64,000 bases of DNA from an uncultured Holophaga sp. (lineage in GTDB: Bacteria > Acidobacteriota > Holophagae > Holophagales > Holophagaceae): contig OY761614.1 in assembly GCA_963664825.1 (NCBI GenBank), forward strand, positions 2,080,001 through 2,144,000, in the 5' to 3' direction. A program made the position numbers. Shown here piece by piece: positions 36,001 through 42,000 of this stretch. Numbering within the stretch: the first letter of the stretch is position 1; the number at the start of each line of letters is the position of its first letter.

Positions 36001-39000
36001 CCGGTCCAGGATGCCGCCGTGGCCGGGGATGGAGATGCCGATATTGGAATCCTTCACCCCTGCGCTGCGCTTCCAGGTGCTCTCCACCAGATCCCCCAGC
36101 TGGCCCACGAGGCCCAGCAGCAGGGCGATGGCGAGGGTATCCACCAGGCTCCACTGGGTGCAGACCCAGGTCCGGATGATGAAGGCACCCCCCACATTGC
36201 CCAGCACATTGCCCAGGGCGCCCTCCCAGCTCTTCTTGGGGCTCACCTTGGGGGCCAGCTTGTGCTTGCCGCAGGCGCTGCCCAGGAAGTAGGCGCCGGT
36301 GTCGCCGAACCACACGATGAGGAAGAGGGCCAGGATGAGCCGCGCGCCGGTATTGGGCAGGGTGGTGTCGTTGTACATGAAGAGCTTCACCATGAAGCCC
36401 GTGCCCAGGCCCATGTAGAGGGCCGACATCCAGGTGATGGCCTGGCTGGAGAGGGCGTTTTCCAGCGGATCCTTGCTGAAGAGCAGGGCCCCGAAGTGGA
36501 TGAGGATGCCGCCTCCGGCCAGCACCAGCCAGAGGGGCAGGGGCTCCGCAGCCCTCAAGGCCTCTCCCCCGGAGAGGTAGAAGTGCAGCAGGAAGCCCAG
36601 TCCCACCAGCGTTCCGCCCAGGATGGAGGGATGGTGGCCCACCTTGCGGGCGATGAGGCACATCTCCCGGACCCCCATGAAGAGGGCCAGGGCCATGAAG
36701 AGCAGCCAAGTGAGCTTGGCCCAGGGGCGTTCGCCGAAATAGAGCAGGGAGAAAAATAGGACGCCGAAGATCGCGGCTGTGCCCACGCGGAGGGCCAAAT
36801 TGCCTTTGTCGAAGCGGTGCGGGGCAGTGCTCATGGGTCTCCTTGGTTCAGATCCCGCCGAAGCGGCGCTCGCGGACGGCATAGGCGGCCAGGGCCTCCC
36901 GCAGCTGGGGGCCGCGGAAGTCGGGCCAGAGGCATTCGGTGACGTAGAACTCGGCGTAGGCGGCCTGCCAGAGCAGGAAATTGGAGATGCGCATTTCCCC
37001 TGAGGTGCGGATGAGCAGGTCCACCTCGGGCGCATCCGCCGTCCAGAGGCGGGCCTGGAGGGCCTCCTCGGTCACTTCCTCGGCACGCAACCCGTCCTCG
37101 ATGCATCGTTGCGCCGCATGAGTGATCTCCAAGCGGCTGCCGTAATTGACCGCCAGGTGGAAGGTCATGCCCGTATGGGCGGCCGTGGAGGCTTCCAGCG
37201 CGCGGAGATCCCGCTGGATGCCTGCGGGCAGGCCTTCGAGGGCGCCCAGATGATGGAAGCGGATGTTCTTCTTTTGCAGCTTGGGCAGGAACATCCGGAG
37301 GTACATCCGCAGGAGGGCCATGAGTCCGGCCACCTCCAGGCTCGGCCGCTTCCAGTTCTCGGTGCTGAAGGCATAGAGTGACAGGTGCTGAATGCCCGCC
37401 TCCGCAGCGGCGTCCAACACCTCCTCCACGGCCCGCACGCCCTCCTTGTGCCCCTTGATTCGGGTCCAACCCCGCTGAGCCGCCCAGCGCCCGTTCCCGT
37501 CCATAATAATGGCTACGTGATTCGGCGCGCTCATAGGGCCACCCCGCAGAAATCGCGCGTCCAAAGGCTTGGTGCTGAGGCTTCGCGTATGGCCGCAGGC
37601 CATACCGAAATAATGATGCCCACGTGGGCCGGAATACTCATCGCGGGATCCCTGCTCGTGGTTTAGAACCGCCCCGCGTGTAGGTCTCGGACATCCCCGC
37701 AGGGGATTCCGAGATAATGATGGAGACCTGATTCGGGACGCTCATCGCGGGCACCCCTCGGGGGGGCACCAGAAACTGGGCGATGTGGCCGGAAGGCTCA
37801 AGGGCAGGATCTCCGGGAAGCCCCTTTCAGGGGCCTGAGGGCTTGGACGAACGGGCGAATTCTAGCATGGGGGGCGGGGCCCCAGGGGGGGTGGGGAAAA
37901 TCCTGCTAGGCTGGAGAGATCACCCGGGACTTCCACCCATGGTCCAATTCAACACGCGCGCTAACGAGATCCTGCTGAAACTGGTCTACTACGGCCCAGG
38001 GCTCTCGGGCAAGACGACCAACCTCCAGTCCCTGCACGCCATGTGCCAGGAAGTGCAGCGGGGCGAGCTGTTCTCCGTCAACACCCAGGAGGATCGCACC
38101 CTCTTCTTCGATCTGCTTCCCATCAATCTCGGCTACATCTACGGCAACGCCATCCACCTTCAGATCTACACGGTGCCCGGCCAGGTGCAGTACGACGCGA
38201 GTCGGCGGGTGGTGTTGGGCGGGGCCGACGGCGTGGTCTTCGTGGCCGATTCCAGCGAATCCAAGATGCAGGAGAATGTGGATTCCCTCTCGAATCTTTA
38301 CCACAACCTCAATGCGAACCGGCTGAACATCAAGCAGATCCCCTTCGTGCTGCAGTACAACAAACGGGATCTGGATGATGCCATGCCGGTGGGCGTGATG
38401 AACCGGCGGCTCAATTTCCGCTCGGTGCCCTTTTTCGAGGCCGTGGCGCCTCGGGGCACGGGCGTATTGGAGACCTTCCTGTCCATCACCAAGGACACGG
38501 TGGGCACCACCTTCAAGAAGTATCACCTGGACAAGAAGATCAAGGATTTCGACGAGATGCTCAATCTCATCGAGACCAATATCCGCTCCAGCATGCGGGA
38601 GCTCCCGGCTGCCGATCAGCTGCCCCTGCCTCGGCCCGAGAGCACCGTGCTGCGCCATAGCGATGTGAGCGTGGCCGATCTGACCCCCGGCAAGGTGGCC
38701 GATGCCCAGGAACTCCTGGAGGATGCCCTCAAGTCCAATATGGAGACGGCCCGTCTCTACAGCGAACTCAAGCAGACCAAGGAAGCCCTGGACAAGAAGG
38801 GCGAGGAGATGGCCACCCTCTTCAATCAGCTGGAGCGGGCCAACCAGGATAATCTCAAGACCCGTCGCTACCTGGAGGGGCTCATCCAGAGCGTAGGGGA
38901 AGCCATCATCTCCTTCAGCCACGATGGCCGGATCCTCACCTGGAATACGGCCGCCGAGCAGATCTTCGGGTATCCCCGCAGCGAGATCGTCGGCAGATCC

Positions 39001-42000
39001 TTCCAAATGCTCCTCCCTCCTTCCAAGGCCGGAGAACTGGAACAAGCCATCCTCCAGGTAGGCAAGGGGCAGGTCCTCCGGGATATCCCCAGCGTTCGTG
39101 TGCGCAAGGGAGGCCAGGAATTTCCGGCTTCGGTCACCTACGCACCCATCCGGGGCAGCGATGACCGGGTGCTGGCCTTCTCAGCCCTGGTGCGGGATGT
39201 GGGCGAACAACGGACGCTGGAACATAAGCTGGAACACGCCGAGACCAGTTCGAGCCTGGCCCGCATCATGCCGCCCCTCTTCAACGAACTGGCCAACCGC
39301 CTCGGCCCGGTCCTGCTCCAGAAGAGCCTGTTGCTGGAGATGACCCCGGATCCGGGCCAGCAACTCCGCATGTCCCGGCTCTTGCAGGGGGTGGACGCGT
39401 CCCAGAACCTGTTGCGCCCCCTCCTGATGGTGCTCTCGCCCTCCTCTCCCCGCCTCGAATCCACGAACGTGAATCTCCTGGTCCAGGAGGCTGCCAAGCG
39501 CGTGGAAGCCGAGGCCGCCGCCAGCGGTGTGGCCATGGATTTCACCATGGATCCCACGGTGCCGGATTGCGGATTGGATCCCGATATGGTTCGGGAGGCC
39601 CTGGTCAATCTCTTCCGCAGCGGGGTCTTCGCGGCGGCGAAATCCACCGTGAAGCGGGTTCGCGTGGGCACTCGGGTGGCTGGAAACATGATCCAGATCG
39701 TGAGCCAGGATACGGGCGATGCCATTCCCGAACCCGAACAGGGGCGGGTCTTCGATCTCTCCGCGGCTTTGGACATCGAGGCTCTGGGTCTCTGCACGGT
39801 GGCCACCGTGGTCCATGCCCACGGGGGTCGTGTCTCGGTGCGCAGTCAGGCCGGGGTCGGGAATGCCTTTCTCGTGGAGTTGCCCATGTCCGATGCCGCT
39901 CCAAAAACGAATGCCGAACCCTCCATGCAGGGGAAGAAGATCCTGGTGGTCGATGACGAAGCCTTCCTGCTGGAGTGTCTCGTCGATGCCATGGAGGCCT
40001 GGGGATGTGTCGTGACGCCCTGCGACCTGGCCGCCGAGGCCATCCAGAAGCTTCAGGTGGGTAGCTTCGATCTCATCGTCTCCGATATCCGGATGCCCGG
40101 CCTGAGCGGCATCCAACTCTTCCAGTGGATTGCCGAGTACCAGCCCGAGATGACCAAGAAGATCATCTTCACCACGGGGGATGCCTTCGATCCGGAGACC
40201 CGCACCTTCCTGGAGGAGGCCAAGCTGCCTCATCTGGGCAAGCCCTTCGATCTTAAGAAGATGAAACAGGCCATGGGGGACGTGCTCATTTAGTCGGGGC
40301 GCCCAAGGAAACAACTGAACCACAGAGGGCGCTGAGGGAAGGAGTTCATTTCTCCCTCTTTGCGCTCTCTGCGATTTTGCTTTTAGCTAGGTGGGTCCAG
40401 GATCCTGGTTCAGTTACCCGTGAACCCGTCCGCGAGATTCACCACCGTCATGGCTTCGTATTCCTGATGCGGGCCGGTGGCGGCCCCGGCCACGTGGATG
40501 TCTGGATTGAAAATGAGGCGGCGGTGGCCCCGGTCCGGGACCCCATCGTCGATGAGGAGCTGAAGGACCGTCATGCGCGGGGTTTCCGCGCCGTAGTTGA
40601 TGACTTCCCCGAAGGTGGAAAGGGGTAGGCCGTGCTTCAGGAGCCGCTGCTGCAGGGTGGAACCGGTGGTACCCCTGTGGCCTGTCTGCTGGGTGCGGCC
40701 CTGGTCGCGCACATGGTCCCGGGCGGCCCGGGACAGGCCCTCGTCCCAGCGCAGGGGGCCGATGGGGAGGGCCTTCTCGAGGTAAGCGATGGCCTCCTCC
40801 AGGGCGGCGGCACCTTCCTCCGTCAGGACCGTGATCTGGCCGGGCCGCTTCAGCCTCTTCCCCTCGAAAAAGGGGCGGAGTTCCCGCAGGAACCGGGCGT
40901 ATTCCCGAGGGGCCGTGCGGGCCCAGGAGAGTTCCTTCACCACAGCCACTTCCAGGGCTTCGGCCTTGGGGACCTCGGGCACCTCCGGCGCTGGGCAACC
41001 GAGGGCGGGGACGAGGAGGGCCAGTGCGGGATGCATGAACCCTACTCTTCGCCCTTCCGCTGCTTGCCCTCGGGATCGAAGGTGTAGCCCACGCTGCGCA
41101 TGGTATGGACCCAGCGGGGATGGTGGGCGTCGATCTCCATGGCGCGGCGGATGCGGACGATGAAGTTGTCCACGGTGCGGGTGGTGGGGTAGGTCTCTTC
41201 GCCCCAGACCTTGTCGAGAATCTCGGTGCGGCTCACCACCTGGCCCGGTTTCTCCATGAGGAGCTTGAGGATCATGCACTCCTTCACCCCCAGCTGGAAG
41301 GCGCCTCCGGGGCCTTCGCCGCAGAAGTTCTCGAAATCCACCCAGTGGGGGCCGAAGTTCTGGCGGCCGGCCAGGGTGCGATTCCGGTACCAGGCCTCCC
41401 GGCGCAGGATGGCGCGCACGCGCAAAAGCAGCTCCCGCACCTGGAAGGGCTTGCCCAGGTAATCGTCACCGCCTGTCTCGAAGCCGTGGACGCGATCATC
41501 CTCGGTATTCTTGGCGGTGAGAAAGAGGATGGGGGTGAAGTTCTTCGCATCCCGCACCCGCTCGCAGACGGAGAATCCGTCCATGCCCGGCAGCATCACG
41601 TCCAGGATCACCAGGTCGTAATCGTCATGGAGGATGCGCTTGAGGGCCTCGTCGCCCCGGGTGATCCACTCGCAGGGCAGGCCTTCCATTTCGAGATTGA
41701 GCTTGATGCCCTCGGCCAAGCTCAGTTCGTCTTCGACCAATAGGATCCGGGGTGCGGGCATGGAGACTCCAGGTTATAGAAATCCTAGCGCTAGAATGGA
41801 ATTTGGAGTCTAACCAATGAACACCCCTTACGTGAGCATCGTGATTCCCATCTTCAACGAGGAGGAAAACATCCCCGTTCTCTGGGAGCGCCTTTCGCGC
41901 GTGCTCCTCGAACATTTTCCCGGCGGGGACCGGGATTGGGAGGTGGTCTTCACCGACGATGGCAGCCGGGATAACAGTCTGGAGCTGCTCAAGGCCATCG

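Follow-up and report, generated by a model that had tools for sequence, protein, structure and literature searches.

The window, a 64,000-nucleotide stretch from the genome of an uncultured Holophaga sp., carries a gene of 784 codons plus a TAG stop at 37939..40293 (+), held within a single open frame (37783-40293, +) in the ORF listing of the window. The start was placed at the ATG at 37939, where MVQFNTRANE is found in 18/18 aligned orthologues, and three long ORFs on the opposite strand of the locus had no Pfam match. One polypeptide starts with an MglA-type GTPase, which is followed by a helix and a coiled coil, then by PAS, then by a DHp/CA kinase core and lastly by a receiver, all features described below being on the plus strand. 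The covalent union of MglA, PAS, kinase core and receiver proposed by the initial annotation proved to be real, intact and conserved, and its coordinates for Ras, PAS, HATPase_c and Response_reg were reproduced exactly by Pfam. The product is probably a soluble signalling protein that, to judge from its sequence, would dimerise via the coiled coil and the DHp hairpin. Approximately 590 further residues are covalently joined to the G domain.

The N-terminal domain (residues 1-195, 37939..38523) was identified as a Group-1 MglA-type GTPase by Pfam (Ras, residues 67-186, 27.4 bits versus a cut-off of 21.6) and by phmmer searches of the PDB, with matches to MglA of M. xanthus (6h17; E=6.5e-55, residues 5-193) and T. 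thermophilus (3t12; E=2.1e-48). Identity was ~50% to M. xanthus MglA (94 identities over 189 aligned positions, counted by hand from the phmmer alignment); to the canonical MglA of the same genome it was 49%. The P-loop GPGLSGKT (G19-T26), DRT (R53/T54), TVPGQ (T78-Q82) and NKRD (N141-D144) motifs are all present, in agreement with the 50% MglA likeness and intact nucleotide-binding motifs claimed previously, and the 12 catalytic positions show no variation across 121/121 relatives. These motifs mark a catalytically complete GTPase of the Group-1 MglA type. It shares the Group-1 P-loop, the Arg by the G2 Thr, TVPGQ and NKRD with the MglA/MglB systems of M. xanthus, T. thermophilus and Bdellovibrio; unlike canonical mglA, however, the fusion gene is not encoded near mglB. 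A search of the genome recovered four MglA-like places, namely the 784-aa gene and conserved paralogues of 388, 292 and 194 aa, the last directly downstream of the only Robl_LC7/MglB match, which confirms the three further paralogues, one beside MglB, noted earlier. This single MglB adjoins the canonical mglA ~400 kb from the fusion gene, and the fused G domain keeps the intrinsic Arg finger and Gln found in MglB-dependent Group-1 MglAs; the suggestion that the protein operates without an MglB-type partner is thus not supported.

Directly after the G domain lies a conserved segment (residues 194-222, 38518..38604; 84-90% identity across the family), predicted from its periodicity to be an amphipathic helix, with heptad positions L197, I201, F204, L208, I211, I215 and L222 and strong hydrophobics at a frequency of 0.77 at a/d versus 0.20 elsewhere in a heptad scan. 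A variable Pro-rich spacer (residues 223-251, 38605..38691; 60-68% identity in alignments), containing the conserved short motif TVLRHSxVSVxDL (residues 236-248), separates it from a predicted coiled-coil signalling helix that runs into the PAS domain (residues 252-313, 38692..38877; 84-89% identity). The latter prediction draws on the heptad scan (a/d hydrophobics 0.51 versus 0.18), weak coiled-coil-type Pfam matches at 252-321 and an alignment with GAF-type fusion proteins, to which this segment is common. The PAS domain itself (residues 312-425, 38872..39213) was matched by PAS, PAS_4 and PAS_9 of Pfam at 58-60 bits (PAS at 312-421, 58.4 bits) and by TIGR00229 at 74 bits.

Alignment to ZraS (9jfj) and FixL chimeras, together with the family alignment, placed a DHp-like helical hairpin at residues 426-505 (39214..39453). 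Its H-box reads LFNELANRL, with E450 and N453 retained and N449 (AAC, 39283-39285) occupying the phospho-His site of ZraS and FixL. Pfam found no HisKA in the 784-aa protein at E<=1. Of the earlier suspicion of a degenerate kinase with no clear H-box and no HisKA, the absence of HisKA was reproduced, but an H-box exists, with Asn in place of the phospho-His. The CA domain (residues 506-655, 39454..39903), defined by Pfam (HATPase_c, residues 549-651, 35.5 bits versus a cut-off of 26.4) and alignment to ZraS, retains the N-box Asn557 and a G1 box of D591-T-G-D-A; its G2 box is degenerate, with EALGL where GxGLGL is expected, as it is in His forms. Asn at the phospho-acceptor site rules out autophosphorylation at the canonical site and the feeding of the protein's own receiver, and on these residues the kinase core of this lineage is a pseudokinase. 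With N449, a degenerate G2 box and a HATPase_c score of only 35.5 bits, the protein cannot run a phosphorelay by itself, contrary to the proposal of a GTPase hard-wired to one. By its sequence, the DHp does keep the +4 Asn (N453) needed for phosphatase activity of the HisKA type. According to PMC3510030, the T/N at +4 is a requirement of the phosphatase activity alone, which does not depend on the His but is enhanced by it. Pfam HisKA also misses the DHp of His forms, and HisKA-derived rules may therefore not transfer.

The receiver (residues 666-780, 39934..40278), recognised by Pfam (Response_reg, residues 668-778, 65.1 bits) and its conserved residues, carries the phosphorylation residues D672, D673, D716 (40084-40086), T746 and K768. 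Among receiver-bearing relatives, 111/111 have the three Asp, and 110/111 have T746 and K768. Beside a kinase core without His, the phosphorylatable receiver would have to obtain its phosphate elsewhere, be it a different kinase, an Hpt protein or acetyl phosphate.

Across Holophagaceae, residues 1-313 were matched at 74-93% identity in 28 of 30 other genomes, within open frames of ~690-1570 aa, lengths that overstate the proteins because frames in GC-rich DNA overrun genes (the 1570-aa frame holds a gene of ~650 aa); the two of 30 with no match to this segment are both 1.1-1.2 Mb. As stated by the initial annotation, the N-terminal part also occurs in longer frames of other Acidobacteriota (residues 1 to ~300, 38-58% identity, frames of 600-930 aa). 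The MglA and linker module precedes a PAS or GAF sensor in more than 6,000 long proteins, some with kinase and receiver and some without; most are from Acidobacteriota, across which they are spread, and the module also occurs in a Planctomycetota MAG. The receiver is missing in some orthologues, and the relatives include MglA-linker-PAS alone and MglA-PAS-receiver proteins without a kinase core, which indicates that the kinase core is dispensable to the fusion family. Identity by domain was highest in the GTPase (0.91-0.96), followed by the coiled coil (0.84-0.89), PAS (0.63-0.77) and receiver (0.60-0.76), and lowest in the kinase core (DHp 0.41-0.72, CA 0.44-0.61).

The residue at the N449 site varies among 128 aligned relatives (63 His, 45 Asn, 5 Asp, 3 Ser, 6 other and 6 gaps). 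In the tree, the window protein belongs to a clade of 46 rows (support 99), 41 of which have Asn, and a sister clade keeps His in a regular H-box (LFHEvANRLtP). The Asn forms enclose a single His form, P0021, and a His clade of five members, so the acceptor site is labile; Asn to His is a single base change (AAC to CAC), and the tree requires at least 12 residue changes at the site, with repeated loss of His. The N-box Asn is retained in 52/63 His forms versus 22/45 Asn forms, and HATPase_c scored 45-51 bits in three scanned His forms of the Geothrix clade versus 30-37 bits in Asn forms, with P0021 at 37.6 bits. An even weaker CA (14.6 bits) in the His group typified by P0018 shows that His presence and CA integrity are not cleanly coupled. 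The H-E/D-x-x-T/N motif is upheld at +1 (E/D) and +4 (N/T) in 102/111 receiver-bearing relatives, and both positions are lost in 8/8 members of a receiver-less clade.

The architecture had been put forward as new, and no description of an MglA-kinase fusion was found in the literature searched; it is not rare, being one branch of a thousands-strong family with several architectures. According to passages of PMC4316618, Wuichet and Sogaard-Andersen (2014) removed every sequence >240 aa before analysis, a limit that left fusions of this length out of their survey. The same passages describe the Roco proteins (LRR-Roc-COR), known prokaryotic multidomain Ras-like GTPases that likewise place a Ras-superfamily G domain in a multidomain signalling protein; however, Roc is placed with the Rup family rather than MglA, and the partner domains are entirely different, with no two-component modules. 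Actinobacterial conservons (AGPS) also unite a histidine kinase-type protein (CvnA) and an MglA-like GTPase (CvnD), with the MglB-like CvnB and CvnC, in one unit, as portions of PMC13343842 and PMC4316618 report. These are separate genes of a four-gene operon rather than a single polypeptide, their GTPases are of Group 2 (no Arg finger, GTPGQ) rather than Group 1, and they lack a receiver and include a kinase, CvnA8, that autophosphorylates, whereas the window protein has a receiver and no phospho-acceptor His. No CvnB or CvnC genes occur in the neighbourhood of the locus.

The pseudo-histidine kinase DivL of Caulobacter crescentus (4q20), among the PDB sequence matches (E=2.2e-5 and 4.1e-6), likewise has PAS before a DHp/CA core without phospho-His, the residue at that site being Tyr in DivL and Asn in the window protein, which also keeps the +4 Asn phosphatase residue; unlike the window protein, DivL lacks both a GTPase and a fused receiver. 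Parts of PMC4211667 describe DivL as without kinase and phosphatase activity and its core as having become a sensor of a phosphorylated receiver protein, with the usual flow reversed. PsmA of Streptomyces venezuelae, as characterised in sections of PMC12963549, is a hybrid kinase-like pseudokinase of cell polarity with PAS domains, a C-terminal receiver and no H-box His, which acts at the polarisome and cell pole with its receiver Asp and phosphatase motif immaterial; it has no GTPase, and any of E, D, Q, V and Y may occupy its variable acceptor site. The window protein differs in its conserved Asn, E-x-x-N motif and N-box Asn. Given PsmA, retained residues need not mean phospho-signalling.

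In ordinary kinases the signal runs from the N-terminus to the DHp, and on that rule MglA would be the input. In this reading MglB, exchange factors or location at the cell pole would determine the GTP/GDP state of MglA, an additional N-terminal input, and the coiled coil and PAS would convey that state to DHp/CA; in His orthologues it would decide between kinase and phosphatase action on the receiver, and in the Asn form, where the phosphatase or docking side alone is left, it would gate the lifetime of receiver phosphorylation. We consider this a credible but rather unlikely explanation. The domains follow the N-to-C order of ordinary sensor kinases, the linker that runs into PAS has a heptad pattern, and the regular H-box of the sister clade and the N-box Asn of most His forms (52/63) are in keeping with it, as are a GAF-type relative (P0136) with HisKA at 82 bits and HATPase_c at 109 bits, His in 21/24 sampled GAF-type relatives and the pairing of histidine kinase and MglA-like GTPase in one system in the conservon passages (PMC13343842; PMC4316618). 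However, MglA has no downstream target in members made up of MglA-linker-PAS only, conservation is lowest in the kinase core, and there were repeated losses of His (the tree has at least 12 residue changes at its site), 3/24 GAF-type forms being without it.

An improbable alternative is that the pseudokinase core and receiver dimerise, localise or tether MglA without phosphoryl chemistry, as in PsmA and the Streptomyces polarisome. DHp and CA evolve fastest, one whole clade has dispensed with both receiver and E-x-x-N motif while keeping the rest of the protein, and the receiver Asp and H-box of PsmA are dispensable in the account given in part of PMC12963549. A scaffold, however, sits poorly with the five receiver phosphorylation residues kept in 110-111/111 relatives, the +4 Asn retained exactly where a receiver is present, and replacement of His mostly by one residue (Asn, 41/46 in the window protein's clade) at a site that is variable in PsmA. 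It is very improbable that the protein is a still-active hybrid kinase relaying to D716 from another His (e.g. H432 or H436) or by trans phosphorylation in a heterodimer: HATPase_c exceeds the Pfam cut-off, N557 and D591 are present and two His lie 13-17 residues upstream of N449, but the orthologue alignment shows no conservation of H432/H436, the G2 box is without its glycines and 23/45 Asn forms have lost the N-box Asn.

We tentatively favour a dimeric MglA switch steered by PAS and receiver, with a dead kinase core that reads, docks on or dephosphorylates the receiver. The conserved helix and coiled coil tie the MglA domain to PAS, the dead core would act on the receiver as DivL does with DivK~P, and PAS and coiled coil would relay receiver state to paired MglA domains acting as the output switch. 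We infer the direction of signal flow and the phosphatase or docking activity, as we would any link to pili, flagella or polarity/motility. According to passages of PMC4316618, M. xanthus MglA cooperates with the receiver-domain proteins RomR, FrzS and AglZ, and the portion of 10.1101/2024.02.20.581209 on RomX has it bridging the RomR receiver to MglA-GTP. The G domain differs little across His and Asn forms (identity 0.91 between and 0.92-0.96 within groups); being the most constrained part, the GTPase may well be the core of the protein's function, and the MglA-linker-sensor module is the constant element of a large fusion family.

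The ORF listing places the fused gene in a stop-free frame at 37783-40293 (+), and its start was set at the ATG at 37939, since this is the codon at which each of the 18 orthologues aligned opens with MVQFNTRANE; the gene (37939-40293, +) encodes a product of 784 aa. A Pfam scan of this window protein identified Ras (residues 67-186, 27.4 bits), PAS (312-421, 58.4 bits), HATPase_c (549-651, 35.5 bits against a cut-off of 26.4) and Response_reg (668-778, 65.1 bits), reproducing exactly the domain coordinates of the initial annotation. Compared with solved structures, the protein matched Myxococcus xanthus MglA best (6h17, E=6.5e-55, residues 5-193), with Thermus thermophilus MglA (3t12) at E=2.1e-48, and the next-best matches after the MglAs were to ZraS (9jfj, residues 425-651) and to receiver domains. 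A decaying pseudogene was ruled out: the frame is intact, synteny is retained at 8/8 loci, and the full fused module was found in 28 of 30 other Holophagaceae genomes (the two misses being genomes of 1.1-1.2 Mb). Three long ORFs on the opposite strand gave no Pfam match.

Upstream of the fused gene and divergent from it are uppS, cdsA and dxr, an arrangement found in all eight Holophagaceae loci fetched. Downstream and convergent are a CAP-domain ORF (40410-41279, -) and a gene for an OmpR-type response regulator (41042-41761, -); the listed start of the former overlaps the latter, and the regulator has no kinase gene beside it. This regulator is found downstream in 5/8 of the fetched loci (81-92% identity) and a GT2 gene in 6/8. 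Upstream of dxr lies an ordinary two-component pair (33025-34748, +), in which the histidine kinase is of LytS type (His_kinase, 70 bits) and the response regulator of LytTR type. In Rfam searches of 37400-40700 all matches were at chance level (E 0.45-0.86, far under gathering scores), and a promoter and terminator scan found no sigma-70 promoter-like sites and one terminator-like site, on the minus strand, versus 2.2 expected.

The interval between uppS and the fused gene contains three tandem units of approximately 105 nt each (37500-37760, minus strand), in each of which a uppS-start copy comes first. The genuine copy is MSAPNHVAIIMDGNGRWA; the two degenerate upstream copies, MSIPAHVGIII and MSVPNQVSIII, are in other frames, and a short hairpin comes after each of them. 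The window has two occurrences of the pattern ATAATGATG-N(10-25)-CTCATCGCGGG, both in this interval; they are its only occurrences in the whole 3.47-Mb genome, and shuffles gave none. Two similar copies are present in a related locus (L012). A conserved intergenic motif acting as a regulatory site was rejected, as it represents the 5' end of the uppS coding sequence together with its two degenerate copies in tandem, and the listed uppS start (37603) is probably too far upstream.

Group-1 MglA proteins are marked by an intrinsic Arg adjoining the G2 Thr, by TVPGQ at G3 and by [NT]KxD, while Groups 2-5 have GTPGQ instead of TVPGQ (PMC4316618, excerpts). The fused G domain has a P-loop of the form GxxxxGK[T/S] (G19-PGLSGKT26), an arginine finger in D52-R53-T54, which aligns with DRT of M. 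xanthus MglA, TVPGQ at T78-V-P-G-Q82 and a G4 motif at N141-K-R-D144. The P-loop and arginine finger are invariant in 121/121 relatives, as are all 12 GTPase positions checked, so that the nucleotide-binding motifs are intact as the initial annotation had stated; its figure of approximately 50% identity to Myxococcus MglA also stood, with 94 identities in 189 positions aligned to 6h17 by hand count. On these motifs the G domain is assigned to the Group-1 MglA type. NCBIfam matched it only with the generic small_GTP model, below cut-off, and no MglA-specific model matched either this domain or the organism's own canonical MglA. An mglB homologue within four genes, which is typical but not universal of Group 1, is absent here: none of the neighbouring genes examined encodes MglB, and the sole Robl_LC7 match in the genome is about 400 kb away. 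The survey of Wuichet and Sogaard-Andersen (2014) had been described as treating single-domain GTPases, and the sections consulted agree, giving a working limit of 150-240 aa with longer sequences excluded (PMC4316618); at 784 aa the window protein falls outside this limit.

The initial annotation saw no clear H-box and considered the kinase possibly degenerate. An H-box is recognisable, LFNELANRLGP aligning with vaHEirNPLss of ZraS and laHELnqPLaa of FixL (phmmer), but the position of the phospho-acceptor His is occupied by Asn449 (codon AAC). Pfam HisKA, also reported as lacking, had no match at E≤1 in the window protein, and none in the five His forms scanned, three of which are orthologues from the Geothrix clade. 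The G2 motif reads EALGL versus GTGLGL in ZraS; HATPase_c scores above its cut-off, and E450 and N453 are retained. In the CA domain the N-box Asn (N557) and D591 are present, and G1 reads DTGDA, with Ala for the second Gly in the alignment to ZraS. Across relatives, the N-box Asn is kept in 52/63 His forms versus 22/45 Asn forms, and HATPase_c scores range from 45 to 51 bits in the three Geothrix-clade His forms versus 30 to 37 bits in Asn forms; P0021, a His form nested among Asn forms, scored 37.6 bits and one His group just 14.6 bits. Judged from these motifs and scores, the ATP-binding side of the kinase core appears weakened.

An alignment of 128 sequences (the window protein, P0003-P0128 and P0138) has His at site 449 in 63, Asn in 45, Asp in five, Ser in three, other residues in six and a gap in six. 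FastTree was run on 121 of these rows with the H-box columns excluded, after dropping four sequences shorter than 650 aa and P0126, P0128 and P0138. The resulting unrooted tree places the window protein in a 46-row clade (SH-like support 99), in which 41 rows have Asn, and a 58-row clade including Geothrix-named proteins has His in all but one row. A further clade of eight rows without a receiver has Asp, Glu, Ser or Thr at this site, and His also turns up among the Asn forms, in a single protein and in a clade of five, with at least 12 residue changes at the site over the tree. Either His or Asn may be ancestral, as the tree is unrooted and a deletion spans the H-box in P0126, the closest outgroup protein. 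With Asn in 41/46 members of its clade, the window protein has a DHp/CA core that lacks the His and is conserved as such, as in histidine pseudokinases of the DivL and PsmA type, and the identity of 0.58 in the CA domain within the Asn group indicates that the domain is being maintained rather than decaying.

The receiver retains its acidic pair (D672/D673), the phospho-acceptor D716, T746 and K768. D672, D673 and D716 are kept in 111/111 receiver-bearing relatives, and T746 and K768 in 110/111. The H-box motif H-E/D-x-x-T/N is defined for HisKA kinases, in four of which the T/N at +4 was needed solely for phosphatase activity and the acid at +1 solely for kinase activity (PMC3510030, in part). 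The window protein has both, as E450 and N453, and an acid at +1 together with N/T at +4 is kept in 102 of the 111 receiver-bearing relatives. Both residues are lost in 8/8 members of the receiver-less clade; as this clade is one lineage, the joint loss counts as a single evolutionary event and not as a statistical result. Given this division of roles, the window protein is, on its residues, a natural 'kinase-minus' form that may dephosphorylate or dock its own receiver. The receiver phosphate must then come from elsewhere. The genome has six Hpt matches, one of them in a 131-aa frame, and no partner was identified.

Conservation is graded along the protein. Over three comparisons (62 His forms with one another, 43 Asn forms with one another, and His with Asn forms), mean pairwise identity is 0.91-0.96 in the GTPase, 0.84-0.90 in the first helix (residues 196-222), 0.84-0.89 in the coiled coil, 0.63-0.77 in PAS, 0.60-0.76 in the receiver, 0.41-0.72 in the DHp and 0.44-0.61 in the CA domain, and the G domain is nearly identical between the His and Asn groups. 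Heptad periodicity is 0.77 versus 0.20 at residues 194-222 and 0.51 versus 0.18 at residues 252-318, which supports the prediction that the linkers are helical or coiled-coil. Both the helix that follows the G domain and the coiled coil that precedes the sensor can be aligned between PAS-type and GAF-type fusions, and the first 300 residues of the two types share 42-46% identity, with 99% of the query covered. Searching the PDB with the linker alone (residues 190-316, phmmer) returned just two chance matches (E~0.9), a result that speaks neither for nor against a RomX-like origin of the linker. Residues 1-320 had no usable match in the ESM Atlas. Within the variable Pro-rich spacer of the Holophagaceae proteins, TVLRHSxVSVxDL (38644-38682, residues 236-248) is conserved, with R239 and L248 invariant and H240 and S244 nearly so in 72 sequences, and it does not align in GAF-type relatives.

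Fusions of this kind form a large family. A word-index search with residues 1-200 found at least 7,718 proteins of 431-1372 aa at E≤1e-10 among 8,000 candidates scored, and an exhaustive search of 1.84 billion representatives gave 6,235 matches at E≤1e-3, of which 1,818 reached E≤1e-30, with only two of the best 150 being 240 aa or shorter. These 150 closest representatives of the fused G domain are mostly of 250-600 aa with tails of no known family. Pfam architectures, read on 54 of them (the top-ranked and most of the longer matches), comprise MglA-PAS-HATPase_c with or without receiver, MglA-PAS-receiver without kinase, MglA-PAS alone, MglA-GAF-PAS, MglA-GAF-HisKA-HATPase_c with strong kinase scores (82 and 109 bits in P0136) and many with tails of no known family. 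The His is kept in 21 of 24 GAF-type proteins sampled. An MglA-like match at E≤1e-20 is present in 281/401 sampled Acidobacteriota genomes, a count that takes in G024, G049 and G152, three unpublished genomes that support nothing else stated here. Species-representative genomes gave at least 600 matches; among the best 80, those extending from MglA through the kinase belong to Acidobacteriota, Holophagaceae, Thermoanaerobaculia and one Planctomycetota MAG, and those covering MglA plus the GAF region include three Nitrospirota MAGs. The Planctomycetota locus (L032) reads Ras/Arf-GAF-HisKA-HATPase_c by Pfam. A 1570-aa open frame in a relative (L010) was rejected as a gene, being a stop-free GC-rich artefact over a true gene of approximately 650 aa.

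The genome of the window encodes four MglA-like proteins, of 784 (fused), 388, 292 and 194 aa. The 194-aa canonical MglA, encoded directly downstream of the only MglB gene, is 49% identical to the fused G domain. Its orthologues across Holophagaceae are 85-96% identical (33/41 genomes matched at E≤1e-60) and the fused G domain is 91-99% identical among its best 120 relatives, so the fused copy is at least as constrained. The 388-aa and 292-aa paralogues, outside the window at L002:1501-2667 and L004:1501-2379, respectively, have Pro-rich C-terminal tails of no Pfam family, and both types are conserved across Holophagaceae. Four of four genomes of genus g8, of the same family (G329, G395, G416 and G424; ~0.9-1.2 Mb), have no match to canonical MglA or Robl_LC7, and the fused module had no match in the two searched. 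These streamlined genomes, of which two are just 71-84% complete, seem to lack the MglA set altogether. A second, weak Roadblock/LC7-like ORF of ~131-155 aa (~23 bits, at the Pfam cut-off) is present in several genomes of the family, some 60-110 kb from the fused gene, for example G172:C1:1813213-1813482, G036:C1:3134778-3135044 and G311:C1:2823020-2823289; none was found at E≤0.001 in the genome of the window.

Since the MglA-linker-sensor portion is invariant while the kinase core and receiver come and go, we take the G domain as the functional core. PAS, receiver and (pseudo)kinase core would be regulatory modules on a dimeric coiled-coil chassis; in the window protein the dead kinase core would read or dephosphorylate the receiver, for which DivL is a precedent, and the state of the receiver would be relayed onward to the MglA domains. 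The main rivals are signalling in the forward direction, with MglA as the input to a phosphatase-only core, which we consider less likely, and a phosphorylation-independent, PsmA-like scaffold, which we rate slightly lower again. Actinobacterial conservons (AGPS) differ in being four-gene cvnA-cvnD operons with a Group-2 GTPase, whereas the fused gene has no such neighbours and a Group-1 G domain. A function in the polarity of pili or flagella is a plausible but purely inferential suggestion; seven matches to T2SSE-type ATPases are present in the genome, along with PilM and FlhA.

We tentatively propose, as a possibility that is less likely than not, that fusions of MglA, linker and sensor make up a widespread class of bacterial G-protein signalling proteins that has gone undescribed, in which a Ras-like switch would be allosterically coupled, within one dimeric polypeptide, to PAS/GAF small-molecule sensing and two-component phosphorylation. 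In that case the version found in Holophagaceae would be a 'response regulator with a G-protein output': the phosphorylation state of its receiver, as read by the repurposed dead kinase core, would determine the GTPase state of MglA or its binding of partners with no need for a classical GAP/GEF pair, and the fusion would serve as a Rosetta stone for direct communication between MglA and receiver or DHp domains.

Work on bacterial Ras-like GTPases has treated them as single-domain switches controlled by GAPs and GEFs that are separate proteins, and the links between GTPases and two-component systems known to us (RomR, FrzS and AglZ of Myxococcus; CvnA of the conservons) are all in trans. No description of an MglA-kinase or MglA-PAS/GAF fusion was found in the literature searched, which took in few subscription journals and no supplementary tables, so that an earlier mention is possible. 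A term search of PMC5847659 found no GTPase mentioned. The suspicion that domain databases list the architecture was justified: the databases clearly hold it, as shown by the name that one source gives to a relative of the GAF type, 'signal transduction histidine kinase/signal recognition particle receptor subunit beta'. Other database names, 'PAS domain S-box protein' and 'response regulator', conceal the GTPase.

The family described here links GTPase and two-component domains covalently across a large natural set of live-kinase, dead-kinase, receiver-only and sensor-only forms, and is abundant in the Acidobacteriota, an environmental phylum that is major yet little studied. The split between His and Asn inside one bacterial family is a natural experiment, setting kinase against pseudokinase on a near-identical GTPase, and the fusions offer a direct handle on cross-talk between phosphorylation and GTP state.
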